The notes under the pieces are model-generated. The model saw only the letters and a program-made list of their open reading frames with translations, was not told where the DNA came from and did no database searches. A stretch of 64,000 nt of DNA, from sequence record NZ_CP064874.1; one strand, given 5' to 3'. This stretch comes from a plasmid. The translations under genes and the position numbers were made by a program. This document shows positions 49,855-64,000 of this stretch, piece after piece (positions within the stretch are counted from its first letter, which is position 1; each line of letters starts with the position of its first letter).

Positions 49855-51258
49855 CTAGAGGAGCGCGGTGTCCACGCGGCAGCACTTCTGCTGCGCGTAG
49901 GGACGGTCACTCAACGGGATCCAGCCCTCTTCTCCTCGGCGGAGGAGGCGCGGGTGTCCGGGCTCGGTCTCAGCAGTCATGTGTGGGCCAGCGTTGGTCC
50001 AGCAGTTCTGTGCGCGCGTCTCGCACCACAGCGCGAGTCGCGCTTCGCGGGGGAGACATGCCCGGTGCGTCCACCAGGCGCGCTTCTCCCCGTAGGGGCC
50101 GAATTGGTGCCCTTCACTGTGGGCGATTGCGTCGTGGACAGCGCGGAACACGTCGTTGGCGAGCATCGGCGCGCGCTCTCCCGAGGGGAGGGTGACGGTC
50201 ACGGTGCGTGCCATCGGGTGGTCCGGCGGTAGAGCGCCTTCGGTGTGCTGCGAGACCTCGGTGCGGAAGTAGAACAGATGCTTGTTCTGTCGCAGATCGT
50301 CGAGCATCGCGGCGGAGTCGGCATAGGGCTGCTCGGCCTCTCCGTGCCAGGGCTCGAAGGTGTAGCCGGCTTCCGTGAGCATGTCCCACTGCGCGCCGAT
50401 GTGCTGGCGCAGGCTTCGGTAAGACCGGGCGACCTGTGGGTGGGTGGGTTCGTGCGCTGCGGCCGCGTAGGCTCGCGCTGCAGCGATGTCGTCGAGCTCG
50501 GTCAGCCGGGGGATGGGTTTGCGTTGCGGGAACCCGTGCGCGTCGGCGTATCGCTCTCTGAGCGATTGGATCTCCTTGATGGGCTGGTGGCGCTGGTAGC
50601 TGTCGGTGCCTGGCACGAACGCGACGTGCGCTCGAGCGAAGGTGGGCGACGTGCCGAGACGTGCGGCGATCGCGTTCACGGCGGATGCCGGCAGCGGGTA
50701 CTCGGCGGGTTCGGCGATCTCGAGCTTGCCGTCGTAGAGCCTGCCACCTGGTGCGCCGGCGGCGCGGAGGATGTCGAGAGTCTCCTGGACTTGCAGCTGC
50801 GAGCCGGTGTCGGCGGCGAAGCTGTAAACCCGGTCAGGTCCGTCCGGGTCGAAGTACCCGGCCATGATGCTGTCCTGCTCATACCGTCCTGCGAGCTCTC
50901 CCGCCCAGTCGGTGACCTGCTCGAAGCTGTCCGCACGGACGATGTAGGCGCCGGCTGGTTCAGATGCGCCTTCCCAGAGCCCGTCTGCGTGCTGCAGTTC
51001 CGAGATCTCGATGCCGTGGCGTTCCGCGGCGGCGCGGAGGGTGTCTTCGTACTCGATCCACTCGTCGGTGTCGTAGTAGCTGGGGCGGGAGCTCATTCGC
51101 ATCAGCTCGCCAGAGACCGGCCGGAACGGGGTTGCCCCGATGAAGGCCTCGAGCTGCTTCTCGGCGTTCTGCTCACGCTTCTCCGCACGCCGACGCCGCT
51201 GCCCTGCGGCTGTCGACGACGGGCACCGTCGCCCTCCGTGGTCGATGTCGTCGCACAT
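49855..51258 (-). CDS. 468-aa hypothetical protein (first long gene of island 2)
   Basis: Start MCDDIDHGGRRC with RBS GGGAGAGG; driven by the class-B promoter at 51280-51313. Confidence 0.55.
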   Translation of the reverse strand: MCDDIDHGGRRCPSSTAAGQRRRRAEKREQNAEKQLEAFIGATPFRPVSGELMRMSSRPSYYDTDEWIEYEDTLRAAAERHGIEISELQHADGLWEGASEPAGAYIVRADSFEQVTDWAGELAGRYEQDSIMAGYFDPDGPDRVYSFAADTGSQLQVQETLDILRAAGAPGGRLYDGKLEIAEPAEYPLPASAVNAIAARLGTSPTFARAHVAFVPGTDSYQRHQPIKEIQSLRERYADAHGFPQRKPIPRLTELDDIAAARAYAAAAHEPTHPQVARSYRSLRQHIGAQWDMLTEAGYTFEPWHGEAEQPYADSAAMLDDLRQNKHLFYFRTEVSQHTEGALPPDHPMARTVTVTLPSGERAPMLANDVFRAVHDAIAHSEGHQFGPYGEKRAWWTHRACLPREARLALWCETRAQNCWTNAGPHMTAETEPGHPRLLRRGEEGWIPLSDRPYAQQKCCRVDTALL

Positions 51259-51279
51259 GGCCTCTCCCGTTCGTCTGCT

Positions 51280-51313
51280 GGGTATAGGCCGGTGTTGGGG
51301 GTGTTCGCGGACA
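51280..51313 (-). promoter_or_regulatory. class-B conserved promoter TGTCCGCGAA-N12-CGGCCTATACCC (copy 1)
   Basis: Followed by CAGACGAAC-GGAG RBS and ATG 51258. Confidence 0.5.
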
Positions 51314-51367
51314 GAAATCGGGCCCCGCCGGTGAGCGGGGCCCCGAGGAGTGCGGTCGAGGTCTGGG

Positions 51368-51496
51368 TCAGCCGTTGAGCTCCTCCCAGACCTGGTACGC
51401 GCGGTGGAACTCGGGGCTGTCATCGTTCCCCTCATTGATGAGCTGGTCGAGGTACTCGTCGAGCTCGGCCTGCGAGAGCTGGCGTGGATCCTTCAT
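51368..51496 (-). CDS. small acidic protein (42 aa)
   Basis: ATGA coupling with the upstream gene. Confidence 0.35.
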   Translation of the reverse strand: MKDPRQLSQAELDEYLDQLINEGNDDSPEFHRAYQVWEELNG

Positions 51497-51777
51497 GACA
51501 CGGACCCATCCGCTACCGGCGGGCAGCTGCATCGGGCGCGTGGCTGCTGGCCTTTCCAATTGCCGGTGTAGAACAGCGCGCACGGCCACTCATGCTCGCC
51601 GCGGCGCCGCGGCCTCGGGACGGCGACCGTGAGCTCACTGCCCAGGTTCAGCGCGTCCATGATGTCGTCGGCGATGAAACCTGCCTCTTCGTCAGGCTCG
51701 TCGGTGTGCTGCTGGATTATTCGCACGATCGTCGCGCGCACATCCAGAGTGACGGACGACGGCGCAGCCCCGGTCAT
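51493..51777 (-). CDS. hypothetical protein
   Basis: Translationally coupled chain. Confidence 0.45.
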   Translation of the reverse strand: MTGAAPSSVTLDVRATIVRIIQQHTDEPDEEAGFIADDIMDALNLGSELTVAVPRPRRRGEHEWPCALFYTGNWKGQQPRARCSCPPVADGSVS

Positions 51778-52214
51778 CGGGTGTACTCGCTCGGTGAGGG
51801 GATCGGCAGGTCGGGGTCGCGCAGCTCGTACTGCCGGTCCTCCACGTAGGCGGCGTACTCGTCGGCGAACTCACGCGCCTCGGCCTCGTTGTGTCCGTCC
51901 TGGCGGGCGTGATCGAACGCCGCCCGCCACTGCTCCCCCACTGCGCGATCGCGCAGCGCCGCGCTGACACCATCCATCAGCTGACCGGCCCGCACGGACG
52001 CGAACCGCAGATCCCCTTCGGCGAGGGCGAACAGGATCTTCTCGATGCCTTCGATGGCGGGTGCGGGGATGGTCAGGGTGATGTCGTCGCCGGCGTCGTG
52101 CTGGCCGGTGCGGAGGCGCCAGAGTGCGTCGGAGAGGGTGAGTGCGCGTTGGCGCTGGATGGGGGTAAGGAGGGAGCTGTCGGTGCCGGTCGTGGTGGGG
52201 GCGGGGTTAGGCAT
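51774..52214 (-). CDS. hypothetical protein
   Basis: RBS GGAGG before ATG 52214. Confidence 0.5.
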   Translation of the reverse strand: MPNPAPTTTGTDSSLLTPIQRQRALTLSDALWRLRTGQHDAGDDITLTIPAPAIEGIEKILFALAEGDLRFASVRAGQLMDGVSAALRDRAVGEQWRAAFDHARQDGHNEAEAREFADEYAAYVEDRQYELRDPDLPIPSPSEYTR

Positions 52215-52428
52215 GCTCGGCCTCCTCTGTGGGCGGATTCATGATGATGAACCCTGTGCCGGTGGGCGGCTGGTCCTGGCGCAGTCCGATGATCTCGGTG
52301 TCGTTCGCGTCGGTGTCGTTGAGGGTCTGCGTGAGCAGGTCGGCGTACTCGTCCGGGGTGAGTGCCTGGACGGCCGCGGCGTCGGTGACGTCGACGGGCT
52401 TGCCGTTGACGTGGAAGATGCGGGTCAT
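52207..52428 (-). CDS. hypothetical protein (73 aa)
   Basis: RBS GGGAG before MTRIFHVNG. Confidence 0.45.
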   Translation of the reverse strand: MTRIFHVNGKPVDVTDAAAVQALTPDEYADLLTQTLNDTDANDTEIIGLRQDQPPTGTGFIIMNPPTEEAEHA

Positions 52429-52473
52429 GGTGCTCCCTGGTAGTGCGTCGGTGGTGTCCATCTTCGTCGCGGG

Positions 52474-52773
52474 TCAGTGGAGGTCGAGTTCGACGCTGTC
52501 GGCTTCGAGGTCGGGGATGGTCTGGTCAGGGTGGCTGAACGTGGCGGCGGGGGCGTGGACGGTGACGCGGTCCCCGCGGTGCGTTGTCAGTCGGAGCAGC
52601 TCGGCGAGGGCGCCGTTGGCGTGGACGTTGTAGGGGCCGGCGTCGGTGTCGACGCGGAACCCTACTCGTGCTCGGCGGTCGGGGAGGCGGCGGACGAGGG
52701 TGAGCGGGGTGCGGATGGTTCCTGTGATGGTGACCGCGGTGCCCGTGGGGGCGGCGGTCTGGGTGATGGTCAT
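52474..52773 (-). CDS. hypothetical protein (start MTITQTAAP)
   Basis: First gene downstream of palindrome 1; the apparent MNVTFT N-terminus is an artefact of the palindrome. Confidence 0.5.
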   Translation of the reverse strand: MTITQTAAPTGTAVTITGTIRTPLTLVRRLPDRRARVGFRVDTDAGPYNVHANGALAELLRLTTHRGDRVTVHAPAATFSHPDQTIPDLEADSVELDLH

Positions 52774-52795
52774 GGCGTTTCTCCTCAATCGAACA

Positions 52796-52812
52796 GTGAA
52801 TGTGACATTCAC
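52796..52812 (-). promoter_or_regulatory. 17-bp palindromic operator GTGAATGTGACATTCAC (copy 1; extended CAGTGAATGTGACATTCACTG)
   Basis: Lies between the -10 TATAGT and the RBS of gene 52474..52773. Confidence 0.6.
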
Positions 52813-52879
52813 TGACTATACGCCTGCATGCCCGGTGGGGGAACCCCCGTGCATGGTGTTGCTGCAGGCCCTTCTTGCT

Positions 52880-52913
52880 GGGTATAGGCCGATGTTGGGG
52901 GTGTTCGCGGACA
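52880..52913 (-). promoter_or_regulatory. class-B promoter copy 2
   Basis: Same 34-bp motif; followed by a GGGGGAACCCCC hairpin, then palindrome 1. Confidence 0.45.
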
Positions 52914-52937
52914 TCCGGGTTGTGGAGGTCGGTGCGG

Positions 52938-53378
52938 TCAGTCGTCGGGGCCGCTGTCGGGTTCGTCGCACGCGCCGCTGTTGATGGCGTCGACGCCGAC
53001 TTTCGTGAGCACCCAGCCGGGTTCGACCCACGAGTAGCGTTCGATCAGTCCTCGCCTGCGGAGGGACTGGATGGTGCCGCCGGGGATCCCCAGGCCTGTC
53101 GTGTCGAGGTAGCTGGCGCCGCCGGAGAGTGATCGGCCATCGGCGATCATCCGCATGGTGACTCGTTGGGACCAGTTCAGCGGCCGGGCGTTCTGGCGGC
53201 GCTTGAGCTCGGTGGTGGCGCATCGCGTGGCGTCGGCCTCGGTGGTGTGATGGTGGGCGCAGCGCCACACTCGTTCGCCGGACTGGTGGGTGTCTTTGTC
53301 GGCGACGTCGTCGATGACGCCGCGCAGCGCGCCTCCTGGGCGTCCGGGAGTCCATGATGACCAGCTGGCGGTCAGCAT
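52938..53378 (-). CDS. hypothetical protein
   Basis: 146-aa ORF with coding bias. Confidence 0.45.
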   Translation of the reverse strand: MLTASWSSWTPGRPGGALRGVIDDVADKDTHQSGERVWRCAHHHTTEADATRCATTELKRRQNARPLNWSQRVTMRMIADGRSLSGGASYLDTTGLGIPGGTIQSLRRRGLIERYSWVEPGWVLTKVGVDAINSGACDEPDSGPDD

Positions 53379-53563
53379 GCGATCGCCGCGGTCAGCTCGG
53401 GGGTGAGGATGCCGGCTTGCTGGTCTGCACGCACGGCTGCGCCGCAGTCTTTGCAGGTCACGTCGGCGATCGTGGTGGCTGCCGATGACGTCTTGCGTCC
53501 GCAGTAGCCGCGTTGCCCTGTGGCGGTGGCAAGGCAGGTTCGGGCGGTGCTTTCCTGTGTCAT
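53372..53563 (-). CDS. small Cys-rich protein (63 aa)
   Basis: C..C...C.DC pattern. Confidence 0.4.
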   Translation of the reverse strand: MTQESTARTCLATATGQRGYCGRKTSSAATTIADVTCKDCGAAVRADQQAGILTPELTAAIAC

Positions 53564-53823
53564 TGGTGGGGCCTGTCCTCGCAGCTCGAGCAGAGGTCGG
53601 GGGTGCCGTCGTCGTTGACCCACCAGCAGCCGCCGAAGCATGCTCGCTCGTCGGTGCAGCCGCAGACGTGACAGGTGCGCACGAGCTCGAGGAGCACCTG
53701 GTCGATTCCGCCTTGGGCGCCGAGCTCCGCGCCGAGCGCGGTGACTCGTGAGATCACGTCCTCGGGTGCGGTGCTGGGCACTTGGATCGTGATGGTGGTG
53801 GTAGGTGTGGTGCGGTCGTTCAT
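53560..53823 (-). CDS. small zinc-ribbon protein (87 aa)
   Basis: CHVCGC...CFGGCWW...CSSCE; RBS AGGAAGG. Confidence 0.5.
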   Translation of the reverse strand: MNDRTTPTTTITIQVPSTAPEDVISRVTALGAELGAQGGIDQVLLELVRTCHVCGCTDERACFGGCWWVNDDGTPDLCSSCEDRPHQ

Positions 53824-53845
53824 GGTGGCCTTCCTGATGTTGGTG

Positions 53846-55141
53846 TCAGGCGGAGCGGGCGAACTTCGTGGCTGCGGTAGTCGGCTGCAGGGCGAGCAGT
53901 CGTCGTGCTTTCTCTGCTTCGATCTCGCGGGGCAGCTCTCCTTTGCGGGTGCCTGAGCGGCCGTAGAGGAGGATCTTCACGCCGGTCTTGGACACCTGTG
54001 CCTGGTCGGCGATCTCGAGGACGGTCATGCCGGATGCCATGAGCTGGCGGACGTGCTGTCGGATCGGCTCGGCGGGCACGCGCGGGGCCTGCGGGGCGAT
54101 GCCGGCCTCCCGGCGTCGGCGCCGTTCCTCAGCCAGTGACGCATCGGCGCACGAGATCTCCGCGGGGCAGTGGTCGCGGTCCTTGCAGCCGAGCTGGTAG
54201 CCGTAGGCGGTCCCGTGGTGCTCGAGCGGGATGCTCTGCGCCTTCCGGTTCGCCATCCACTGCCGGTGATACTCGCGGCCGGCTTCGATGCACTCGGGGC
54301 GGTCGCAGCCGCGCGCTCGGCATGCGTTGGTGCCGTGCGGCTGCAGCTGCCTCGGCTGCGAGGTTCGGGCAGCACGCGCGGTCCGAAGTCGCGGTGTGCG
54401 TGGCCTGGCCGGTGGGGAAGGGCGATCGTGGTCTGCGAGGGCGTCGACGGCGGACTGGTGCCGCAGGGTTGCCTCCTGCAGCGCTCTCTCGATCACCCCT
54501 CCGACGGAGAGGCCGGTGCCGGCGGCGATGGTGGCCGTCTTGAGGGTCTCGGCCGCGGCGCGCAGCTGGCCGCGCAGCTCTCGGTGGTCTTTGCGCCACT
54601 GCTCGAGCTCGTCGACGTGACGATCGAGGTCCGCTTCGTAGCCGTCGAGTGCCTCTGAGAACGCGCTGGCGAGCTCTGCGGGGAGCTTCTCGGCGTCGCT
54701 GCGTGCCTTGTCGAGCCACTGGTAGCCGGGATGGGTGCGCGGCCGCGGCGTCGACGGGCGAGGCCGTGCGGTCGGCGCCGGCGCCGGCGCCTCCTTCGGC
54801 ATGCGCGGGGGTTTGGGTGTGTTGGCGCGCGCCGGCTTCGGTTTGGGGGTCGGCTTGGGTCGACGGGGGCGTGTGGCTTCGACGGCGGCACGGCGCTCTT
54901 CTCGAGCGGCGATCTTGTCCCGTTGCCGCGACTCGGCACGCGCGGCCTCGTCGCGCTCGAGGATCTCGGCGAGCGGTGTGCCGGCGTCGATGAGCTTCGC
55001 GAAGGAGTAGTCGCCCACGTAGCGGGTGTGGACGGTGCGGCAGGGGATCAGCGCGGGGCACGCGGCAGTGCGGCATCCGTGGCGGTACCCGTCCGGGGTA
55101 CCGTGCGGGAAGCGGTCGTCGAGGAGATCGAGGGTGGACAT
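53846..55141 (-). CDS. 431-aa protein with three HGT-x2-GY-x2-GC Cys/His modules and a Pro/Lys-rich linker
   Basis: HGTPDGYRHGCRTAAC, HGTNACRARGCDRPEC and HGTAYGYQLGCKDRDHC; C-terminal HTH-like LEIADQAQVSKTGVKILLYG. Confidence 0.55.
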   Translation of the reverse strand: MSTLDLLDDRFPHGTPDGYRHGCRTAACPALIPCRTVHTRYVGDYSFAKLIDAGTPLAEILERDEAARAESRQRDKIAAREERRAAVEATRPRRPKPTPKPKPARANTPKPPRMPKEAPAPAPTARPRPSTPRPRTHPGYQWLDKARSDAEKLPAELASAFSEALDGYEADLDRHVDELEQWRKDHRELRGQLRAAAETLKTATIAAGTGLSVGGVIERALQEATLRHQSAVDALADHDRPSPPARPRTPRLRTARAARTSQPRQLQPHGTNACRARGCDRPECIEAGREYHRQWMANRKAQSIPLEHHGTAYGYQLGCKDRDHCPAEISCADASLAEERRRRREAGIAPQAPRVPAEPIRQHVRQLMASGMTVLEIADQAQVSKTGVKILLYGRSGTRKGELPREIEAEKARRLLALQPTTAATKFARSA

Positions 55142-55152
55142 GACGGTCGACC

Positions 55153-55614
55153 TCAGTAGCGGAGGAGCTTCGCGGTGACCAGGGTCAACAGTGCTGCCCG
55201 CTGCGGGGCGTTGAGCCGTGAGAAGTGCGCACCAACGGTGTCTAGCGCCGTGGTGAACTCCTCGGGCAGACCGTCGAGATCCCGCTTGATGCGCCGCTCA
55301 TTCGCATCCCGCTGCGCCTCCGCTTGATCGGCCACGCGCCACTCGTCGGTGGCGGCTGTGTCGGCGTATCTGCCGGTGATCCGTGGCGTGTACTGTCCGC
55401 CCGTGTAGAGCACGGTCGGCTCGCCGGCGGGGCGGGTGATCGTGATGATCGCGCCCACCGGAGCCGACGTGTACGGCTTGTACGAGCCGAGCTCCTTGCT
55501 GGTGAGCTCACCGTCGTCGAGCGTCCGATACCAGTGCGCGAGCTTTCCATTACTCGCGGCCTTGCGGCCGACGTAGACGACTTCCTCGGTGACGGTCGCT
55601 GCCTCTTCGCTCAT
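55153..55614 (-). CDS. hypothetical protein
   Basis: RBS GAGGAG; palindrome 2 lies 33 bp upstream. Confidence 0.5.
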   Translation of the reverse strand: MSEEAATVTEEVVYVGRKAASNGKLAHWYRTLDDGELTSKELGSYKPYTSAPVGAIITITRPAGEPTVLYTGGQYTPRITGRYADTAATDEWRVADQAEAQRDANERRIKRDLDGLPEEFTTALDTVGAHFSRLNAPQRAALLTLVTAKLLRY

Positions 55615-55646
55615 TGGGGAGCACTCCTCGGATCAGTAAGAAAGTA

Positions 55647-55663
55647 GTGAATGTGACATTCAC
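55647..55663 (-). promoter_or_regulatory. palindromic operator copy 2
   Basis: GTGAATGTGACATTCAC, 33 bp upstream of ATG 55614; TAGTAT -10-like hexamer adjacent. Confidence 0.6.
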
Positions 55664-55668
55664 TGATA

Positions 55669-55878
55669 CTAGAGAGGTTGCAGGGTCTTCGCAACCGTCG
55701 TCGTCGTCACGTCGACGGGCCGCTCTCGACGCTCGTTGACGGGAATCATCCGCACGGGCTCGTCGCGGGGAGCTTCGATCTCGAAGCCGCACGCGCCGCA
55801 GCTGTGCAGCCCGATCCCGTCGACGTCGTCGGAGGGGATGTACATGGTGGTCGGCTCTTCGCACATAAGGCAGCGCAT
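55669..55878 (-). CDS. small zinc-ribbon protein (69 aa)
   Basis: MRCLMCEE...HSCGACGF. Confidence 0.45.
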   Translation of the reverse strand: MRCLMCEEPTTMYIPSDDVDGIGLHSCGACGFEIEAPRDEPVRMIPVNERRERPVDVTTTTVAKTLQPL

Positions 55879-55920
55879 GGTGATCTCCGTTCGCGTGGTC
55901 AGGCGCTTGTTGCCGGGGTG

Positions 55921-56365
55921 ATCGGTTGGACGGTGGCGGAGTAGCCGCGGTGGGAACCCCAGGCGGCGGCGATGCGGTCGGCGACGTCGCGGTCCTCTCC
56001 GAGGTACGGGCGGTATCGCTTGCCGCGGGGGTCTGTGATGACGACCTGGACGACGCCGGATGGCTCGCGCACGGTGACTCTGGCTGCGGGGATCGGATAC
56101 GCCTGGACGTGGCCGGCGATGATGAAGATCGGGTACAGGTCGCGTGCGAGCTCGGGGGTGCGGAACACGTCGTGAACCCATGCCGTGATGGCGAGCGCGC
56201 CGGCGGGGCTGAATCCGATGAGTCGTGCGGGGAGCTGCTCGAGCCCGGCGCGCACGAAGTAGTGCTCGTCGACGAGGATCGGCGTCGGTGGGAGCAGAGA
56301 CTTCTCGTCGTGGGCGGGGTAGATGGTCAGGCTGGTGCGGCTGTTCATGAGGCGCTCGTTCATGC
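55921..56365 (-). CDS. hypothetical protein (148 aa)
   Basis: ATGA coupling with 56360..57130. Confidence 0.45.
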
Positions 56366-57130
56366 GGTGCGGCGGATGCCGGCGGCGATGATGTGTGCCT
56401 TGGTGGGCCGGGAGTAGAAGCCGAAGCTGTCGTCGTCGTCGGAAGCGGAGACGGTGGCGGTGAACGCGACGACGTCGCCGCGGGCGGCGGTGGAGATCTC
56501 GGAGGGCTTGGTGCCCCATACGCGCCAGCCTTCGCCCTGGACGAGGATCTTGACGGTGATTCCCCACTGAGTGTCGGTGGTCTTGGTCGCGAGGATCTCG
56601 CCCTGGATGAGGGTGCGCCCGGTGGGGACGGGGCGGCGCGCGGCCAGCTCGAGCTCGTACTGCTCGAGCAGCTCGTGGGCGGTGCGGACCTCGTCGTCGT
56701 CGAGGGTGCCGGTGTAGTCCTCGAGGGAGTCGAGGATGTAGCCGATCTTCTCGCGCAGCGGGTTGCCCTCCCGGATGCTCAGATGAGCTTCGGTGAGCTG
56801 GTCGCGGAGGCCGGGGTGCTCGGCCTCGAAGGCGGCGCGGCGGGCGGTGATCGCCCGTGTTGTGTCGATGTGCTCGGCGTGTGCCTTCGCGTGGGCTCGT
56901 GCGGTGGCGCGGGCGCTGCTGACGAGGCGGCTGCGGGTGCCGGTGCCGTGGCAGTCGAAGCAGATCGGGCGCCCGTGGCCATCGGTGAAGTGGGTGGGCC
57001 CGGTGTACAGGCCGGTGCCGATGCACTTGCCGCAGGTGTCGGTGATCCGCTCGGAGCCCTTGCGGCCGGGGAAGGGGTCGACGTAGAAGTCGTGCCAATC
57101 GGCCGGTGCGGTGGTGTCGATGCTGTCCAT
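56360..57130 (-). CDS. hypothetical protein with DnaJ-type CxxCxGxG zinc-finger pair
   Basis: CGKCIGTG...CFDCHGTG; RBS GGAGGA; class-B promoter at 57152-57185. Confidence 0.55.
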   Translation of the reverse strand: MDSIDTTAPADWHDFYVDPFPGRKGSERITDTCGKCIGTGLYTGPTHFTDGHGRPICFDCHGTGTRSRLVSSARATARAHAKAHAEHIDTTRAITARRAAFEAEHPGLRDQLTEAHLSIREGNPLREKIGYILDSLEDYTGTLDDDEVRTAHELLEQYELELAARRPVPTGRTLIQGEILATKTTDTQWGITVKILVQGEGWRVWGTKPSEISTAARGDVVAFTATVSASDDDDSFGFYSRPTKAHIIAAGIRRTA

Positions 57131-57151
57131 GGGATCCTCCGGTTCGTCTGT

Positions 57152-57185
57152 GGGTATAGGCCGCGGATCGTTCTCTTCGCGGACA
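57152..57185 (-). promoter_or_regulatory. class-B promoter copy 3
   Basis: Drives gene 56360..57130. Confidence 0.5.
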
Positions 57186-57200
57186 TGAAGGGGAAGGGGC

Positions 57201-57229
57201 GGGGGCGGCTGTGTCACGGAGCCGCCCCC
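57201..57229 (-). terminator. GC-rich hairpin (10-bp stem)
   Basis: GGGGGCGGCT-GTGTCACGG-AGCCGCCCCC, in the untranslated gap between the 43-aa ORF and the class-B promoter. Confidence 0.45.
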
Positions 57230-57396
57230 GCGGCGGCGACCTGGTTGGGAGGACGGCGGGTCGCCGGGAGGGACATGGCGGCGAGCGCGGCGAGCGCTCG
57301 TCAGGCTGCGGTGTGGCGCCTGTCCCTGGGAGGGGAACGGCGTTGCGCGGTTCCCCTGGTTGTGGGTCTGTGGGTTCTCCCTCTACTCAGTTAGTA

Positions 57397-57413
57397 GTGA
57401 ATGTGACATTTAC
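57397..57413 (-). promoter_or_regulatory. palindromic operator copy 3 (variant GTGAATGTGACATTTAC)
   Basis: Preceded by TTGACC -35-like and TACCCT -10-like hexamers. Confidence 0.5.
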
Positions 57414-57470
57414 TAGGGTAGGTGTTTCCTGCCCGGAGGTCAAGTGGCGATCTGGCCTGCATCTGCTGGA

Positions 57471-57602
57471 TCAGCTCGCGGGTGCGCGGTCCTCGTCGGC
57501 GGGGCCGAGCCCTTCCCAAAGGTCGGGGCGGTTCTCGTGGATCCAGGCGCAGATGGTGGCCCAGTCCGCGACGCCGGACGGGTGCTGGTTGATGGTTGCC
57601 AT
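57471..57602 (-). CDS. very small protein (43 aa)
   Basis: MATINQHPSGVADWATICAWIHENRPDLWEGL; RBS GGAGGACACC and palindrome 4 upstream; GC hairpins downstream. Confidence 0.3.
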   Translation of the reverse strand: MATINQHPSGVADWATICAWIHENRPDLWEGLGPADEDRAPAS

Positions 57603-57624
57603 GGTGTCCTCCCGGATCGTCGGC

Positions 57625-57641
57625 TAGTGAATGTGACATTC
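57625..57641 (-). promoter_or_regulatory. palindromic operator copy 4 with TGTCCGAC-N8-TAAGCT promoter
   Basis: Upstream of the 43-aa ORF. Confidence 0.55.
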
Positions 57642-57729
57642 ACAGCTTAGGGAGGGGGTCGGACATCGCTGGGGGACATCGCGAGTGCGTCACTGAGGGC
57701 GGCGGAGTTGCCGCCGCCCTCAGCTCGGT

Positions 57730-57975
57730 CTATTGCATCTGTCTGGCGATGCCGGCTGCGGCGCTGACGACTCGACGGGGGATGCCGAAGATTTCGGGAG
57801 GGCCGGACGCGACGCCGTTGCTCCACACCTTTCCGACGCGCCATCCGATGGGGAACCGGAGGGTGGTCGTGGTGTAGGTGGCCCCGGATTCGAGGGGGCC
57901 GGCGATCACACCGAGGGGGCTGACCTCGACGTACCACCGGCCAACGGTCTTGGAGCCGCCTTCGTGGCCGTTCAT
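57730..57975 (-). CDS. hypothetical protein (81 aa)
   Basis: Start MNGHEGGSK; overlaps the stop of 57972..58261. Confidence 0.4.
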   Translation of the reverse strand: MNGHEGGSKTVGRWYVEVSPLGVIAGPLESGATYTTTTLRFPIGWRVGKVWSNGVASGPPEIFGIPRRVVSAAAGIARQMQ

Positions 57976-58261
57976 GCGCCGGCGTTCTCGAGCGGCTGCG
58001 CGACGTGTGCCGGCAGGGCGCGTAGCGCGGCGCGGGTCACCCACTCGTCGGCGGTCTCGTCGAACTGGCCGAGCTCGATGATCGGCCCCTGGTCGTCGTG
58101 GTGGATGAACAGCGACCCGTACTCGCGGCCGTCGACGTACAGGTAGATGTTCCCGGCGTAGGCGCCGATCTCGCCGTTGTCGAACAGCCCGTCGCGGGCG
58201 TCGGGTTCACCCAGGTCGATCTCTTCCTGGCGGTGCCCGAAGTTGAGGGTGAGCTTCATGG
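57972..58261 (-). CDS. hypothetical protein (96 aa)
   Basis: RBS GGAGGACACC; palindrome 5 upstream. Confidence 0.5.
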
Positions 58262-58279
58262 TGTCCTCCGTAGTAGGTG

Positions 58280-58296
58280 GTGAATGTGACATTCAT
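58280..58296 (-). promoter_or_regulatory. palindromic operator copy 5 (..CAT variant) with TGTCGGAC-N8-TAGCCT promoter
   Basis: Upstream of ATG 58261; shares an intergenic region with the divergent class-B promoter. Confidence 0.55.
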
Positions 58297-58347
58297 AGGC
58301 TACGGTGGGGGTCCGACATTGCGCCGGCGAGCGAGCGATGCACTCTG

Positions 58348-58382
58348 TGTCCGCGAAGCAGCCGGGATGCGGCCTATACCCC
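58348..58382 (+). promoter_or_regulatory. class-B promoter copy 4 (plus orientation)
   Basis: Drives 58419..59860. Confidence 0.5.
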
Positions 58383-58418
58383 TCAGACGGGCACAAGCCC
58401 GCGACGAGAGGAGGAGCG

Positions 58419-58679
58419 ATGCCGAGTCGCGAAGAGGTAGACGACGTCCTGCAGCGCGTGGGGCTGGCGGCGATCTCGTACTACCCAGAGATTCACATCG
58501 ACGAGCCGGACTACACCGTCGACACCGACGTTGATTGGTGCCTCGAGCCGGTGACCGACCTGACCGATGAGCAACGCGCCCCGCTGCGAGAGGCGGTCGG
58601 CCTGGCGATCACCAACCCGACAGCTCACCGGTACGCCCTGTTCCAGACGTTGCTCGAGCTGGCGCCAGCGGAGTCGTAA
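58419..58679 (+). CDS. small acidic protein (86 aa)
   Basis: RBS GAGGAGGAG; class-B promoter in plus orientation at 58348-58382. Confidence 0.5.
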   Translation: MPSREEVDDVLQRVGLAAISYYPEIHIDEPDYTVDTDVDWCLEPVTDLTDEQRAPLREAVGLAITNPTAHRYALFQTLLELAPAES

Positions 58680-59860
58680 TGTCCGCCGGCGTCGACGACT
58701 CGTCGGCGCGACCGGTTGGCGGACCAACCGACCCTCACGCGGCATGGCTGCGAGCGGGTCAGGCACGCCAGCAGGCGAAGCGCGCCGAGCAGGAGCAGTC
58801 GGCTGCGGCGAGCGCTGCGGCCGATCCGAAGCGGGACTACGCGAAGCGGTATCGCGAGGAGCATCGCGAGGAGATCCGCGCGTACCGGGCGAAGTATCAC
58901 GCGGAGAACCGTGACGAAGTGAACCGGAAGAACCGGGAGTACATGCGGGAGCGGTCGCGGAAGATGCGAGCGCAGAAGGAGCGGCGCGAGAAGGACCGCG
59001 AGCGGGTGCGGCGGTGGACCGAGGCTAACCGTGAGCGCAAGCGCGAGACGATCAGGCGGTGGCACGCGGAGCACCCAGAGAAGACGGCGGAGTACTCGCG
59101 GCGCTACTACGAGCGCAACCGTGACGCGGTGCTGGCCAGGGCGAGACAGCGTCGAGATCAGAGCCCGGAGAAGGTGAAGGCGTCGTCGCGGGACTGGCAG
59201 CAGCGCAACCGGGAACACCTGACCGAGTGGCAGCGGCAGTATCGGGCTGAGAACCCGGATGTGTATGAGCGGGCGCTGCAGTCCAACCGTGAGTCGAAGC
59301 GGCTGGCTCGCCGCCTCAAGTCGTTGGGGTTGCCGGCAAAGCGCGTGCGTCGGTCCCCGGCAGCAGAGCGGCGAGCGCATGAGGCGGAGTCGCGGGAGTT
59401 CTTCGAGCGGGACCGGGCGGTGAGCGCGCGGAAGCGGGTCATGGCGGAGTACACACCGCTGGATCAGGCGGCGCTCGAGGCGTGGCGGGCGAGGTCGCCA
59501 TTGGCGCGTCGACGGGATGCGCAGCTGTCGCGGTTCCGGCGGCAGCTGCGCACGGGCGCGGGCAGGATATCGGAGATCCGTGAAGAGGTTCGGATGGATG
59601 CCGTTGCACGGCGACTGCGGGGAGACAGCCTCGACGCGCCCGCGGAGCTGCGTCAGCGGGTCTTCGACGCCGCGGGAGGCCAGGAGTACCTCGCGGCGGG
59701 TGGCGATCGCCATACGGCGGCGCTGATGCTCGAGGAGTCCCTAGATGGGCTGGTCAAGCCTGTCGCGCTCCCGGATGGGCGGGGGATGGTGTGGGTGCCG
59801 GAGCACACGCGCGCAGGACGGGAGATCGCCGGTCACTGGCGCCGGCGCCCCGGCGCGTGA
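58679..59860 (+). CDS. Arg/Glu-rich tandem-repeat (coiled-coil) protein
   Basis: About six ~26-aa repeats with core [KR]-x-[YW]-R-E-x-[HN]-R-[ED] (KRYREEHREEIRAYRAKYHAENRDEV...); TAATG coupling with the preceding gene. Confidence 0.55.
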   Translation: MSAGVDDSSARPVGGPTDPHAAWLRAGQARQQAKRAEQEQSAAASAAADPKRDYAKRYREEHREEIRAYRAKYHAENRDEVNRKNREYMRERSRKMRAQKERREKDRERVRRWTEANRERKRETIRRWHAEHPEKTAEYSRRYYERNRDAVLARARQRRDQSPEKVKASSRDWQQRNREHLTEWQRQYRAENPDVYERALQSNRESKRLARRLKSLGLPAKRVRRSPAAERRAHEAESREFFERDRAVSARKRVMAEYTPLDQAALEAWRARSPLARRRDAQLSRFRRQLRTGAGRISEIREEVRMDAVARRLRGDSLDAPAELRQRVFDAAGGQEYLAAGGDRHTAALMLEESLDGLVKPVALPDGRGMVWVPEHTRAGREIAGHWRRRPGA

Positions 59861-59915: not shown

Positions 59916-60500
59916 TCAGCTGGCTGCGGCGAGCGCGTAGCTGCGTGCCCGCCAGCGGGGGATGCGCACGCGCACGCCGTGGTGGTCGATCACGCGGAGC
60001 ACGTCGCGCCCTTCGACCTCGAAGACGGTCTCCGTGGTGGTCTGCAGCCCTCCTCCGAAGGTGAACGGCTCTGCGAAGCGGATGTGGTCGCCGCGGCGGA
60101 CGCGGGGCTTGGCTTCCTCGAGCTCGAGGTTCGCCCAGCAGGCGGCGCGCCACTGGTTGGCGTACTCGTGGTCGGTCGGGGTGAGGGCCTCGAGCACCCG
60201 GCGGGGTGCGTGGACTGCGCCGGGGCCGACCGTCTCGTCCATGTCCTTGTACGTGAAGTTGTAGTAGCTGGACGGGGCGACGGAGTAGAGCACGACGAAC
60301 GCGAAGACCTCCCCGGCGTGGGGGTGGCCGTCGTTGTAGCGCACCGCGGCGTAGAACTCGTAGGGCCAGTCGTAGCTCCCGCCGATGTAGTCGGGGTCGC
60401 GGCGGGTGCCGCTGGCGATGATCGTGGCGTTGGTGAAGTAGTCCGCGAAGTAGTCGCTGACGCTGACGCCGGCCGTCTTGTGAGTGGATGTGGCACCCAT
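59916..60500 (-). CDS. hypothetical protein (194 aa)
   Basis: RBS GAGGAGGA; palindrome 6 upstream. Confidence 0.5.
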   Translation of the reverse strand: MGATSTHKTAGVSVSDYFADYFTNATIIASGTRRDPDYIGGSYDWPYEFYAAVRYNDGHPHAGEVFAFVVLYSVAPSSYYNFTYKDMDETVGPGAVHAPRRVLEALTPTDHEYANQWRAACWANLELEEAKPRVRRGDHIRFAEPFTFGGGLQTTTETVFEVEGRDVLRVIDHHGVRVRIPRWRARSYALAAAS

Positions 60501-60520
60501 GGTGTCCTCCTCGGTTGCTA

Positions 60521-60537
60521 GTGAATGTGACATTCAC
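60521..60537 (-). promoter_or_regulatory. palindromic operator copy 6 with TGTCGGAG-N8-TAGCCT promoter
   Basis: Upstream of ATG 60500. Confidence 0.6.
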
Positions 60538-60639
60538 AGGCTAAGGGAGGCCTCCGACATCGCCGACGTGACAGCAACAACGACGGCGGCGGGATGGCGA
60601 GCGCGAGCGCGGGGCCGAGCTCGGGGGAGAGCGAAGGGG

Positions 60640-61385: not shown

Positions 61386-61892
61386 ATGAAGACGACCCAT
61401 CGCGACGGCGAGGCGGGTGGGCTGCGGATGCCGGCCGTGTGGGATCGGGCCTCGCTCGAGGCGGTCGGGTTCGTGGGGTTCGTTCGATTCGCGGATCTTG
61501 CGGCCGCGAGGGTGCCGACTGAGGCGGGGATCTACGTGGTGCTGCGTCCGGCGGCGACGTCGCCGGAGCTGCTCGAGCTGACGCGAGCGCGGGCGGGATC
61601 CGCCTACCCTTTGGATGACCTCGCGGCTCGGTGGGTGTCGGGGACGCCGGTGCTGTACATCGGCAAGGCAGAGGCGAAAGTGGGCGGGCTGCGCAAGCGG
61701 CTGGGGCAGTTCGCGCGGAAGGGTGCCAGCCACCAGGGCGGGCGTTCGATCTGGCAGCTGGCCGATCAAGACGAGCTGCTCGTTGCGTGGGTGACGACGC
61801 CGGAGGAGTCCGCGGAGGACGTGGAGGTTCGCTACCGCGCCGCGTTCGCTGACGTGTTCGGTCGCTGGCCGTTCGCGAACCGGAAGCGATGA
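61386..61892 (+). CDS. hypothetical protein with weak GIY-YIG/T5orf172-like features
   Basis: GIYVVL...VLYIGKA...LRKRLGQF, but the motif spacing is atypical. Confidence 0.35.
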   Translation: MKTTHRDGEAGGLRMPAVWDRASLEAVGFVGFVRFADLAAARVPTEAGIYVVLRPAATSPELLELTRARAGSAYPLDDLAARWVSGTPVLYIGKAEAKVGGLRKRLGQFARKGASHQGGRSIWQLADQDELLVAWVTTPEESAEDVEVRYRAAFADVFGRWPFANRKR

Positions 61893-61965
61893 GGGCAGGC
61901 GGTTGATGAGAGGGGTTTCGCCGGGGATCTAGGTTGCTACCGCGGGCCTGTGTACGCTCTCGGCC

Positions 61966-62550
61966 ATGAGGGCAGACAGGTTTGAGGACGTGGAACTTGG
62001 CGCGTTTGAGCGCTTCTATGACGAGCGACCCTTCGAGGGGCGCAGCTATCCCGGCCCATACTTCGAGACCGAGATCGCGTCGGGCATGAAGCGCGGGTTA
62101 GCGGTGTCCGTGGAGGGGCCTACGGTCGATGACGCGCGGGCGCTCATGGATCAGGTGAGGGCCATTATCGCCCGCCCGCTGCCCACCCACGAGATGTACT
62201 CTGCGCTGCTCGAGACATTCCCCAAGGCGTTCCCCTGGAATACCCCAAGACAGATGAGCTATGCCGTCACGCCGAGTGCCATTTGCGTCGGAAGGGAGGG
62301 AGACTACTCAGTCCACTTCGACGTCGACTCGGAAGACGACACTCAAGTCGACTATTGGCCTGTCGTGTGGCTTGACCGTGACGGCAACATTCTGAGCGCT
62401 CACGCCGATGGCGGACGTGGCGAATATCCCGGAGGTCGGGACTACACCCTCCCGGAGGCGACCGAGGCGTTGGTGCGATCCTGGCCGTCGAAGAACATTT
62501 GGGCAGAGGACATCGCGACCCGTCTGGACAAACTGGACGGGCTGGGCTGA
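61966..62550 (+). CDS. hypothetical protein
   Basis: 194-aa ORF with coding bias. Confidence 0.4.
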   Translation: MRADRFEDVELGAFERFYDERPFEGRSYPGPYFETEIASGMKRGLAVSVEGPTVDDARALMDQVRAIIARPLPTHEMYSALLETFPKAFPWNTPRQMSYAVTPSAICVGREGDYSVHFDVDSEDDTQVDYWPVVWLDRDGNILSAHADGGRGEYPGGRDYTLPEATEALVRSWPSKNIWAEDIATRLDKLDGLG

Positions 62551-62586: not shown

Positions 62587-62952
62587 TCAGCCTCGTGCGG
62601 CTGCCAGCTCAGCGTCGATCCGGCGCCGCTCGCCGCCGGGGTGAGTGCTGCCCAGCAGCACGACGCGGCGATCCCATGCGACCTCACCCGTGAGCGAGTC
62701 GACCCAGTCGGTGACGTCGGCGCGCTGCGCCTCGGTCAGCTGGTCGACGGCCAGGCCGGGCAGGATCGTATCGGGCAGGGTGAGGGTCTTGCGCAGGTAC
62801 TCGAAGTCAACCTCGTTGCGCCAGGCGCGCTCCGACTCGATGAACCGGTCGATCTGCGCGTTGTCGGGGTGCCACTGGCATCCGCCGATGCAGGCCTCCT
62901 CGGGGTCGACGGACTGAAACCAGACGGCGTGTACGGTGCGGTTGGTGGTCAT
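62587..62952 (-). CDS. hypothetical protein (121 aa)
   Basis: Palindrome 7 upstream; RBS GGGAGGA. Confidence 0.5.
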   Translation of the reverse strand: MTTNRTVHAVWFQSVDPEEACIGGCQWHPDNAQIDRFIESERAWRNEVDFEYLRKTLTLPDTILPGLAVDQLTEAQRADVTDWVDSLTGEVAWDRRVVLLGSTHPGGERRRIDAELAAARG

Positions 62953-62972
62953 GGCATCCTCCCGGATTGCTA

Positions 62973-62989
62973 GTGAATGTGACATTCAT
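62973..62989 (-). promoter_or_regulatory. palindromic operator copy 7 (..CAT variant) with TGTCGGAG-N8-TAGCCT promoter
   Basis: Upstream of ATG 62952. Confidence 0.6.
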
Positions 62990-63033
62990 AGGCTACGGGG
63001 GGCCTCCGACATTGGCAGCGGCGAGCGCCGCGA

Positions 63034-63064
63034 GGGGCGGGGCGGGCGGTGTGCCCGCCCCGCC
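63034..63064 (-). terminator. GC-rich hairpin downstream of gene 63073..63588
   Basis: GGGGCGGGGCGGGC-GGTGT-GCCCGCCCCGCC. Confidence 0.5.
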
Positions 63065-63072
63065 GGGTTGGG

Positions 63073-63588
63073 TTACTCGCGCTCCCAGTCGGTGACTTCC
63101 GCGTCGATCGAGTCGGCGACGTAGTTGTCGGATCGGAGCGACTCGATCACGTCTTCGACGGTGTACGCCTCGATCGCGAGGTCTTCCGCTTCGTCCGACG
63201 TGCGGGCGGTGACCGAGACGGTAACGCGCTGGGTCAGTGTGACGGAGAGGGTCACCCGGAAGTCGCGCTCGCGCGGGGTGCCGCCGATCGCTTCCACGAG
63301 CCGGTCGTACTCGGAGCAGAAGCCCTCATCGTTGGCGATCTGCTCACCCTTCTCCCAGATCGCCGCGAGCCGGTCGTCGGCGGCGTCGGTGATCGGCAGT
63401 CGCAGCCTGTCGATCTCGCGCTGCTGCCGTTCGACGGTCAGCGCGAGATCCGCGGCCTGCGCCTGGGCGGCGACGAGATCGGCCTGCGTGCGGGCCATCT
63501 CCCCGACGTAGGCGCCGCGCCGCTCGGTGACCGGGGCGGGCATGTCGAGCTGGCCCTGAGCGAACTCGATGTTGGTGGTGGTTGCCAT
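63073..63588 (-). CDS. hypothetical protein (171 aa)
   Basis: RBS AGGAGGA; palindrome 8 upstream; terminator hairpin downstream at 63034-63064. Confidence 0.5.
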   Translation of the reverse strand: MATTTNIEFAQGQLDMPAPVTERRGAYVGEMARTQADLVAAQAQAADLALTVERQQREIDRLRLPITDAADDRLAAIWEKGEQIANDEGFCSEYDRLVEAIGGTPRERDFRVTLSVTLTQRVTVSVTARTSDEAEDLAIEAYTVEDVIESLRSDNYVADSIDAEVTDWERE

Positions 63589-63612
63589 GGTGTCCTCCTT
63601 GGAACGTAGGCG

Positions 63613-63629
63613 GTGAATGTGACATTCAC
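63613..63629 (-). promoter_or_regulatory. palindromic operator copy 8 with TGTCGGAG-N8-TAGCCT promoter
   Basis: Upstream of ATG 63588. Confidence 0.6.
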
Positions 63630-63661
63630 AGGCTACGGGGGGCCTCCGACATTGCTGCGGC

Positions 63662-63691
63662 GAGCGCGGCAGTGCCCCGCCGGTAGATCCC
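63662..63691 (-). terminator. GC-rich hairpin (12-bp perfect stem, 6-nt loop)
   Basis: GTGCCCCGCCGG-TAGATC-CCGGCGGGGCAC, 20 bp downstream of the stop of 63712..63951. No U-tract, so an I-shaped actinobacterial-style terminator. Confidence 0.5.
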
Positions 63692-63711
63692 GGCGGGGCA
63701 CTGGGGGAGGT

Positions 63712-63951
63712 TCAGCTGGCGGGTGGTGTGAGTGCCGCGAGGAGTGCTCTGAGGGCGTCCACAGCCCCGTCACGGGCCTCGAAGACGGCATCCATGGTAT
63801 CGGCCTCTGTGGAGCGCTCGGCCTCCTCGATCGCCGCCTGTGCGGCGCCGGTCAGCTCGCGCAGGCGGGCGGTGTCTGCGGCGAGCGCGAGGGGTGCTCC
63901 GTGCTCGGTGATGTGCAGCGTCCATCCGTCGCCGGTCGGGGTCGCCCACAC
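63712..63951 (-). CDS. hypothetical protein (79 aa)
   Basis: ORF followed by a perfect 12-bp-stem hairpin at 63662-63691. Confidence 0.4.
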   Translation of the reverse strand: MWATPTGDGWTLHITEHGAPLALAADTARLRELTGAAQAAIEEAERSTEADTMDAVFEARDGAVDALRALLAALTPPAS

Positions 63952-64000
63952 GGTGGCGATCGCCTGTCCTTCGGCGTTGTCGAAGTCGACCTTGCCGAAG

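Follow-up and report, generated by a model that had tools for sequence, protein, structure and literature searches.

What holds together a run of small genes on an actinobacterial plasmid when hardly any of their products can be named? This question is raised by positions 49855 to 64000 of a 64,000-nucleotide stretch of plasmid record NZ_CP064874.1 (we refer to the whole stretch as the window). An earlier note on this DNA had proposed that the small genes at its right end are wired to one repressor-style 17-bp palindrome and to promoters like those served by the actinobacterial activator PafBC (RecA-NDp promoters). We found that the palindrome very probably defines a shared-operator regulon on a plasmid backbone. 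Taken as a whole, the locus appears to be best explained as a repressor-controlled establishment regulon with promoters mostly of the PafBC type, an explanation that we hold with modest confidence. The array in question is the following.

49855-64000, minus strand: small-gene array of ~26 open reading frames (ORFs), 22 of them on the minus strand, continuing past the right end of the window.

The 17-mer occurs in the window at 52796, 55647, 57397, 57627, 58280, 60521, 62973 and 63613, with five exact copies and three that carry one mismatch, and the remaining ~50 kb of the window hold no copies. These 16 strand-hits compare with 0.12 expected, and none of 100 dinucleotide-preserving shuffles equaled that count, which bears out the claim of eight non-random copies. 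On the minus (coding) strand all eight read GTGAATGT-C-ACATTCAC, and the operator consists of 6-bp symmetric arms, GTGAAT and ATTCAC, flanking a directional centre, GTCAC. The position just past a -10-like hexamer, as described in the earlier note, was confirmed in all eight units: the operator lies at a fixed distance of 0-2 nt downstream of a TANNNT -10 hexamer. The distance to the ribosome-binding site (RBS), which had been put at 15-25 bp, is in fact 8-17 nt and variable. A start codon follows the palindrome at 20-32 nt in seven of the eight units, and the 57397 unit has no start codon behind its RBS-like sequence.

Two classes of promoter stand in front of the operator. In class 1 (57627, 58280, 60521, 62973 and 63613), TGTC[CG]G-N10-TA[AG][GC]CT abuts the palindrome. 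In class 2 (57397 and 55647), a sigma-70-type -35 hexamer precedes the -10 at 17-bp spacing; the promoter at 52796 is class-2-like, with the same spacing and a weak -35. The cassettes and the genes they drive are listed below.

63613-63651, minus strand: class-1 cassette, with TGTCGG at 63646-63651, TAGCCT at 63630-63635 and the palindrome at 63613-63629; drives 63073-63588.
62973-63011, minus strand: class-1 cassette, with TGTCGG at 63006-63011, TAGCCT at 62990-62995 and the palindrome ATGAATGTCACATTCAC at 62973-62989; drives 62587-62952.
60521-60559, minus strand: class-1 cassette, with TGTCGG at 60554-60559, TAGCCT at 60538-60543 and the palindrome at 60521-60537; drives 59916-60500.
58280-58318, minus strand: class-1 cassette, with TGTCGG at 58313-58318, TAGCCT at 58297-58302 and the palindrome ATGAATGTCACATTCAC at 58280-58296; drives 57972-58259 and 57730-57975.
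57627-57665, minus strand: class-1 cassette, with TGTCCG at 57660-57665, TAAGCT at 57644-57649 and the palindrome at 57627-57643; drives a 43-aa ORF at 57471-57602.
57397-57443, minus strand: class-2 (sigma-70-type) cassette, with the -35 TTGACC at 57438-57443, a 17-bp spacer, the -10 TACCCT at 57415-57420 and the palindrome GTAAATGTCACATTCAC at 57397-57413.
55647-55694, minus strand: class-2 cassette, with the -35 TTGCGA at 55689-55694, a 17-bp spacer, the -10 TAGTAT at 55666-55671 and the palindrome at 55647-55663.
55153-55614, 53846-55141, 53560-53823, 53372-53563 and 52938-53378, minus strand: operon driven by the 55647 cassette.
52796-52843, minus strand: class-2-like cassette with a weak -35, TTCCCC, at 52838-52843, the -10 TATAGT at 52815-52820 and the palindrome at 52796-52812.
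52474-52773, 52207-52428, 51774-52214, 51493-51777 and 51368-51496, minus strand: operon driven by the 52796 cassette, with 49855-51258 downstream.

A nearly identical replicon shows where such operators are found. Over 49855-59265 the island is 99.8% identical to positions 90319-99729 of pYJNG, a plasmid of Microbacterium sp. YJN-G, and the remainder right of 59265 is syntenic with pYJNG at ~134.8-138.3 kb. The 148.6-kb pYJNG carries genes for a MobF relaxase (at ~65.6 kb), a VirB4-like ATPase, FtsK/SpoIIIE, an M23 peptidase and ParA, along with two Tad pilus clusters. Judged by this sequence kinship, the window is a Microbacterium plasmid, and 49855-64000 is part of the backbone of a conjugative plasmid. 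The pYJNG array is split, at the position equivalent to window 59265/59266, by IS256 and ~35 kb of catabolic cargo (99730-134796); the insertion truncates a 393-aa Arg/Glu-repeat gene that is intact in the window (58679-59860). A scan of all of pYJNG found 25 operator sites, in a single orientation and confined to the array (79.8-99.7, 134.8-148.6 and 1-14.5 kb), with none of the 25 in the cargo. The earlier note had named such a scan as a check on its proposal, and dispersal irrespective of gene starts as the result that would count against it; all 25 sites precede minus-strand array genes. This arrangement on a plasmid backbone supports the kil/kor-type plasmid regulon that had been offered as one possible architecture.

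The class-1 promoters are where PafBC enters. Chromatin immunoprecipitation sequencing gave PafBC the consensus tGTCgg(N10)tA(N3)T, with the element at -23 to -28 and promoters that usually lack a -35, and residues R46 and R50 of PafB recognise the GTC triplet (PMC8635444). Single-stranded DNA (ssDNA) activates PafBC (PMC11804915). The class-1 promoters agree with this consensus at every conserved position and in the exact spacing, with their element at -28 to -23. TGTCNG-N10-TANNNT occurs six times in the window against 0.47 expected, and five of the six occurrences abut the palindrome. The earlier description of the promoters as PafBC/RecA-NDp-like therefore holds for five of the eight units and fails for the other three (52796, 55647 and 57397), which have -35 hexamers.

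The same two classes appear on a larger scale. The 25 aligned pYJNG sites resolve into class 1, CAATGTCSGA-N8-TAGNCT without a -35, and class 2, TTGACN with 17-18 bp to TANNNT. We also pooled 109 non-redundant cassettes from many contigs, selecting class 1 by a GTC at the -26 position. Class 1 accounts for 63 of these, all with exactly N10 to the -10, and class 2 for 27 (TTGACN/TTGCGA, 17-18 bp), while the rest mostly have weak -35 hexamers. The information profile peaks at ATGTC-G and at TA...T, with lower conservation across the 10-nt spacer; among the 63, near-invariance extends to the flanking A-T and to the G two bases past the C (1.5-1.9 bits). Most of the class-1 promoters (53/63) match TTGACA at three or fewer of six positions, and ~10/63 also have a fair -35. 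Several type-C plasmid promoters (the operator types are defined below) and at least one of type A are outright hybrids, TTGACG-A-TGTCGG-N10-TANNNT, in which a -35 at 17 bp is combined with the -26 element. These hybrids, with TTGACG abutting TGTCSG, should work with or without PafBC, and they are found at the following positions.

L111, 7727, 16038 and 17457: hybrid promoters.
L112, 7851 and 15274: hybrid promoters.
L117, 14507: hybrid promoter.

From the fit to the consensus, we think it somewhat probable that PafBC reads the -26 element.

Related plasmids follow this design with other operator sequences. The operator variants are homogeneous inside one plasmid and different between plasmids, and we denote them types A (as on pYJNG), B and C. 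Plasmid A of Microbacterium sp. No.7 (L108), a diverged relative of type B, carries 10 sites of another operator, GTGTATGTCAGATACAC, flanked symmetrically as GTGTTGTGTAT-GTCAG-ATACACAACAC. These sites lie right behind the -10 (TANTGT) and ahead of the RBS, and both promoter classes occur; 7/10 have a -26-type element upstream, five of them an exact TGTCSG-N10. The type-C operator, ATGAATGTCAGATTCAC, is found on contigs L111 and L112, and type B recurs on one further contig. Depending on type, the arms read GTGAAT/ATTCAC or GTGTAT/ATACAC, with positions 4 and 14 changing together (A:T to T:A) such that symmetry is kept, and the centre is a directional GTCA[C/G] across types. Because the -26 element stays in place while operator, -10 and spacer change, selection on the element is a better account than mere inheritance.

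The extended motif is almost never found without the operator in these plasmids. The exception is the umuD/Y-family polymerase operon of No.7 plasmid A (L108 ~11212-11260, minus strand), which has the promoter AATGTCGG-N10-CATACT, a cassette-like 5' untranslated region (5'UTR), GCGATCCGGGAGG, and only a degenerate operator; we saw no convincing LexA box in this operon. Some genes of these plasmids also occur on the right half of pAL1, a linear plasmid of Arthrobacter, which has neither the operator nor the -26 motif; not every related plasmid of the Micrococcales therefore follows the design. An exact-match scan covered 185,579 species genomes, and among the matches listed the operator appears as chance singletons in unrelated phyla and in multiple copies on Microbacterium and Leucobacter contigs. 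Near-identical cassettes also turned up, again among the matches listed, on contigs of metagenome-assembled genomes labelled as other phyla, which are probably mis-binned.

The sequences themselves show the anatomy, its statistics, its confinement to plasmid backbone, and how it is conserved and varies from plasmid to plasmid; the mechanism that we infer from them concerns repressor binding, PafBC dependence, start site and timing. Each transcription unit opens with a cassette made of a -10, the operator at once behind it, a short conserved 5'UTR and a strong RBS. With the -10 at -12 to -7, transcription is predicted to begin at the G of the central GTCAC, and a dimeric repressor seated on the arms would span -6 to +11 and block initiation. 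The minority class 2, with its ordinary -35, would be fired by the housekeeping holoenzyme whenever the repressor is absent. The majority class 1, with TGTCSG at -28 to -23 in place of a -35, as in the sigma-adaptation promoters that depend on PafBC, would also need host PafBC, switched on by ssDNA. Class-1 expression would then be confined to conditions in which the repressor is absent and ssDNA is present, i.e. the moment after conjugative entry, and would stop once the plasmid-encoded repressor accumulates. We put this entry-triggered burst forward tentatively, and would sooner bet slightly against it than for it.

What the genes encode bears on whether "establishment" is the right word. 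Most window proteins received no assignment in Pfam, PHROGs, NCBIfam and PDB sequence searches, yet the verdict that none is recognisable proved too strong. The first gene behind the 52796 operator (52474-52773, minus strand) encodes a 99-aa protein without a Pfam or PDB sequence match. Its AlphaFold2 model (pLDDT 85.7) has as best Foldseek matches the single-stranded DNA-binding proteins (SSBs) of S. coelicolor and M. tuberculosis (TM 0.73-0.76, probability 1.00); on this modelled structure, the product is an SSB-like OB-fold protein. The gene behind the class-1 cassette at 60521 (59916-60500, minus strand) belongs to DUF6927 (Pfam E 4e-16). The 171-aa product of 63073-63588 (minus strand) has a weak DpnD/PcfM-like C-terminus (E 0.0023, below the Pfam cut-off) and a 41% identical homologue on No.7 plasmid A. 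The 431-aa product of 53846-55141 (minus strand) combines three HGT..GY..GC modules with a C-terminal helix-turn-helix-like region, and residues 335-423 match phrog_1590. It has a 66% identical homologue on No.7 plasmid A, and its more distant homologues have HTH_23/HTH_7/GerE Pfam matches. Four window proteins, this one included, have a homologue in the examined parts of the type-B plasmid or pAL1. Structure prediction, which the earlier note had suggested for the small proteins, was informative for the 99-aa protein and much less so for the 146-aa product of 52938-53378 (minus strand): the conserved C-terminal ~75 aa of the latter gave a weak winged-helix model, with weak MarR-family matches in Foldseek and none at E <= 0.001.

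In the related plasmids, genes directly behind operators (pYJNG, L111, L112 and L117) include ArdC-like, Mom-family and DUF3846 genes, and a DUF3560 gene lies within an operator-controlled operon of pYJNG and its relatives. In or adjoining their array we also found genes for an HNH protein, a SOS-response-associated peptidase, a 5-kb CHC2 primase, a DUF4192 protein and an orphan methyltransferase. Leading or establishment regions classically contain the gene for SSB (ssb), ardC-type genes, and genes for primases and anti-restriction. As far as sequence and modelled folds go, the gene content fits establishment functions.

Several observations weigh against a plasmid-repressed, PafBC-dependent regulon. 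The right arm and centre of the operator are invariant in 8/8 window copies and 25/25 pYJNG copies, and substitutions (including G1A, G3A, T6C and G7A) are confined to the left arm, the one nearer the promoter; were the operator purely symmetric, this asymmetry would not be expected. A conserved 5'UTR, TAGCCAACGATCCGGGAGGACACCATG, stands behind the operators, and even the first codons are common to the cassettes. Because they have this 5'UTR in common, the cassettes are clearly related by duplication or gene conversion, and part of their conservation is therefore common descent. Because ~10/63 class-1 promoters have a fair -35 and type-C hybrids exist, PafBC may boost these promoters rather than be required. 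Among Micrococcales, the literature consulted shows PafBC only in Arthrobacter and Kocuria. An identical palindrome lies beside a chromosomal winged-helix gene that is absent from the plasmids, and the binder may therefore not be plasmid-encoded (see below). Lastly, none of the five candidates examined as cognate repressor was convincing.

The candidates failed on different grounds. A GntR-family gene (pYJNG 2229-2741) lies in an operon behind an operator, and related operator-bearing contigs either do not have it or have its C-terminus only. A 236-aa helix-turn-helix protein (pYJNG 3161-3871) is, to judge by its position, autoregulated in both A-type and B-type plasmids: in A-type contigs an operator with a sigma-70-type promoter precedes its gene, and in the B-type plasmid its operon follows the operator variant. 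The recognition helix, EGTIRRW, does not change between the two types, and of all candidates this one has the weakest case for rejection. An Xre-like 191-aa protein behind the 5-kb CHC2 primase has no operator of its own, though its recognition helix shows a G-to-R change between A and B. The statement in the earlier note that no candidate repressor lies in the window is too firm: two helix-turn-helix-like proteins are present (53846-55141 and 52938-53378), although neither passed as the cognate repressor. In the 431-aa protein, the helix-turn-helix region follows a pattern (A = B, and C differs) unlike that of the operator arms (A = C, and B differs). Homologues of the 146-aa protein also occur on contigs without an operator within 10 kb, and its fold match is weak. 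A chromosomal 106-aa winged-helix protein was set aside because pYJNG, the examined parts of No.7 plasmid A and the plasmid collection hold no homologue.

Two of these proteins belong to a conserved trio, made up of a ~5-kb CHC2-primase-like protein, an Xre-like ~190-aa protein and a ~236-aa protein.

pYJNG, 3161-10150: conserved trio.
L108, 13480-20753: conserved trio.
L110 (pAL1), 42989-49398: conserved trio.

Both smaller members have a GVSxGTxxRWIxG helix-turn-helix, and the large one is annotated as telomere-associated on linear pAL1. Because its trio adjoins the telomere-associated protein there, the Xre-like protein may function in replication. Many Rhodococcus plasmid records, some of them of linear plasmids, carry a homologue of the 236-aa protein close to the end of the record.

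Alternatively, the operator could be what it seems while TGTCSG is either read by an activator other than PafBC, encoded by the plasmid or the host, or is a passenger of a duplicated cassette in which the -10 alone suffices. The near-identity of the cassettes, which includes the 5'UTR and first codons and implies common ancestry, speaks for this account, as does the existence of hybrid promoters with a good -35. We nevertheless consider this account unlikely: GTC and the exact N10 persist in plasmids whose operator, -10 and spacer have diverged, Pfam found no WYL-domain protein among 43 window and pYJNG array proteins (a part of the array), and umuD, a damage gene, has the same -26 element.

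Another possibility, which we rate lower, is that the palindrome is bound by a non-plasmid protein, either a host factor or the 106-aa winged-helix protein, such that the array is silenced by it or the plasmid borrows it. This possibility arises because, among the matches listed, Microbacterium chromosomes contain a conserved single copy of the palindrome. At least 11 Microbacterium genome loci hold it in two diverged variants, as the exact block AGTGAATGT[C/G]ACATTCACTGTA with the 22-nt form AGTGAATGTSACATTCACTGTA. The intergenic region around this block, which separates a gene for a TnsA-like endonuclease from that for the 106-aa winged-helix-like protein, is otherwise diverged, and the block is its only long conserved stretch.

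L031, 2160-2260 (Microbacterium sp. CJ88), and L030, L038, L047, L054 and L067: chromosomal loci.
L037, L049, L058, L060 and L090: chromosomal loci of variant two.

In one locus, a ThiF/E2-type gene adjoins the TnsA-like element. A second conserved motif near the block, ACGTCAGATAGAYAAC, looks like the type-B operator from its centre through its right half. The conservation of the 22-nt block beside the winged-helix gene at these loci favours a non-plasmid binder, as do contig L032, which has plasmid cassettes and the winged-helix gene together, and the failure to find a plasmid-encoded repressor among the candidates examined. On the other side, the winged-helix gene is absent from pYJNG, the examined parts of No.7 plasmid A and the plasmid collection, the operator variants are uniform per plasmid, which fits a plasmid-specific partner, and the known analogues have plasmid-encoded repressors. 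It is possible that the transposon-like element was formerly part of such plasmids and has retained the site for their repressor.

The palindrome might instead work at the RNA level: as a feature at the 5' end of the transcript, it would influence stability or translation and would not be a DNA operator. The centre and right arm, which are the part predicted to be transcribed, are invariant in 25/25 sites while the left arm varies, the centre keeps a constant orientation relative to the gene in plasmid copies, and the 5'UTR is conserved. However, the palindrome keeps a fixed distance to the -10, whereas its distance to the RBS and the start codon varies, and a start at G7 would leave the left arm untranscribed, such that no hairpin could form. 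The arms change symmetrically between types, one chromosomal variant has the centre flipped relative to the flanking genes, and Rfam gave no match on the island at E <= 1. We regard this account as very improbable. The least probable of all is that a temperate phage or phage-plasmid has its early region here, with the palindrome as immunity operator: small orphan genes, 17-bp inverted repeats at conserved promoters and several matches to PHROG families without assigned function recall one, but there is no meaningful match to the island in 50,697 phage records and no virion or structural gene annotated on the complete relative, which has a MobF relaxase, type IV secretion system (T4SS)-type genes, ParA and Tad pili, and the phage-inducible regulon that had been raised as an option is left unsupported.

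Searches of the literature for the palindrome core returned nothing relevant. The arms recall the Rex operator, TTGTGAA-N4-TTCACAA, and this likeness was ruled out by the spacing, which is N7 here.

Other features of the island concern how its units are separated. Three perfect GC hairpins end units.

63670-63703, minus strand: perfect 14-bp GC hairpin, dG -33.7, ending the preceding unit, with no T-run.
63036-63064, minus strand: perfect 12-bp GC hairpin, dG -30.6, behind gene 63073-63588.
57693-57723, minus strand: perfect 13-bp GC hairpin, dG -28.3, behind gene 57730-57975.

A perfect hairpin of at least 7 bp upstream of the promoter is thus confined to three of the eight units, and not found at each of them as had been described. 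Independent termination applies to some units only: 5/8 are without a perfect hairpin, and 3/8 promoters drive operons of three to six genes. Two pairs of genes inside the array run the other way.

58419-59860, plus strand: two genes (86 aa; the 393-aa Arg/Glu-repeat protein), divergent from the 58280 cassette.
61386-62550, plus strand: two genes (168 and 194 aa), with no operator ahead.

By eye, a GIY...YIGKA pattern in the 168-aa protein (61386-61892) hints at a GIY-YIG nuclease; sequence searches of Pfam, NCBIfam and PDB returned nothing for it.

The 57397 cassette, which precedes no start codon, leads into an unusual region.

57199-57396, minus strand: structured non-coding leader or small RNA that follows the 57397 operator and is conserved in type-A, type-B and type-C plasmids.

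It contains the RBS-like GGGAGAAC, a covarying hairpin (57332-57356), the sequence GTCCTCCC at 57247-57254, which is anti-Shine-Dalgarno-like (GTCCTCC), and an invariant 11-bp GC hairpin (57199-57231). By its sequence features, this ~200-nt leader may be a separate small RNA. At ~57261-57290 (minus strand) it also holds CGCTCGCCGCCATGTCCCTCCCGGCGACCC, which resembles the class-1 upstream half minus the -10 and the operator. Apart from the operator cassettes there is a second repeated cassette, TGTCCGCGAA-N13-GGCCTATACCC, which has no operator; its 11-mer occurs four times in the window against 0.34 expected.

51280-51313, minus strand: second cassette, behind a strong hairpin.
52880-52913, minus strand: second cassette.
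57152-57185, minus strand: second cassette, behind a strong hairpin.
58348-58381, plus strand: second cassette.

The second cassette lies 20-50 nt ahead of the start codons of three genes, and once ahead of the 52796 promoter. Positions 1-49800 of the window are mosaic cargo common to Microbacterium, Gordonia and Rhodococcus plasmids, with ABC-F and Cmx-type resistance genes, IS5/ISL3 elements, Rieske dioxygenases and alpha/beta hydrolases; parts of it match plasmids of Gordonia, Microbacterium sediminis and M. proteolyticum at 97-99.8% identity.

How does the repressor-controlled, PafBC-type regulon that we favour compare with known systems? The kind is already known, namely a plasmid global-repressor or establishment regulon, and similar ones include that of ArdK on IncW R388 and the kil-kor regulons of IncP-1 plasmids with KorA, KorB and KorC. 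The part that appears to be undescribed is the placement of PafBC-type promoters under a plasmid-type-specific operator in ~25 copies per plasmid. Repeated operators are also familiar from phages. The conserved inverted repeats (CIRs) of Streptomyces phage phiC31 are 17-bp inverted repeats, present in many intergenic copies by conserved early promoters and bound by the phage's own repressor, and the stoperators of cluster A mycobacteriophages are repeated immunity operators. The CIRs are like the palindrome in length and placement, but they belong to a phage and no phage genes were found here. The ssDNA (Frpo-type) promoters in the leading regions of F and ColIb-P9 have the same proposed purpose, the expression of ssb and anti-restriction genes on entry with single-strandedness as the cue. 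In that system the ssDNA itself folds into a promoter, whereas here the promoters would be duplex and the cue would pass through a host sensor protein; promoter-forming long hairpins of the Frpo type are not present.

Among plasmids, the closest in layout are those of Bacillus and the IncN group. On p576 of Bacillus, Reg576 controls its own and strong establishment promoters, and a transient burst follows transfer because the DNA enters without repressor (PMC8708921). As here, a conserved regulatory sequence (compare the EGeRS2 sequences of the pLS20 family) recurs ahead of several establishment operons, including ardC (PMC8708921). The p576 system differs in its sigma-A promoters and ribbon-helix-helix repressor, where the promoters described here mostly have no -35 and a PafBC-type -26 element. 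On IncN pKM101, the CUP elements combine a promoter and a repressor site before the leading-region genes ardA, ardB, ardK and repA, and ArdK is autoregulated (PMC6289460). These elements are likewise conserved upstream repeats at several genes. They are proteobacterial, without sequence kinship to ours or a known host-activator promoter class, and number ~3-9 sites versus 25 in pYJNG. Known PafBC promoters share the class-1 layout, with tGTCgg at -28 to -23, 10 nt to tAnnnT and usually no -35 (PMC8635444). They serve chromosomal repair genes that are activated on damage, whereas those proposed here would serve orphan and anti-restriction-type genes of a conjugative plasmid and are overlaid with a putative repressor site; our literature search did not find PafBC discussed in relation to conjugative plasmids, and the one text that names both, a review, does so a single time each.

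To our knowledge, the timing of establishment-gene expression has been well worked out only in a few proteobacterial plasmids and the Bacillus pLS20 family, and we know of nothing comparable described for actinobacterial T4SS-type plasmids. Speculatively, and with the odds in our view against it, actinobacterial conjugative plasmids may use host PafBC as an arrival detector, with class-1 promoters acting as AND gates and types A, B and C as immunity-like groups, while the chromosomal TnsA-like elements may listen in or interfere. If true, the regulon proposed here would be a protein-mediated counterpart to the ssDNA promoters of F-like plasmids, and the PafBC regulon would extend past chromosomal repair genes. 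Compact and highly regular, with 25 near-identical cassettes per plasmid, this family makes testable the co-option of a host DNA-damage activator by a mobile element, the combination of a sigma-adaptation promoter with a classical operator, and the roles of dozens of co-regulated orphan proteins. It also provides a simple sequence signature for spotting establishment genes, and hence anti-defence candidates, in Actinobacteria.

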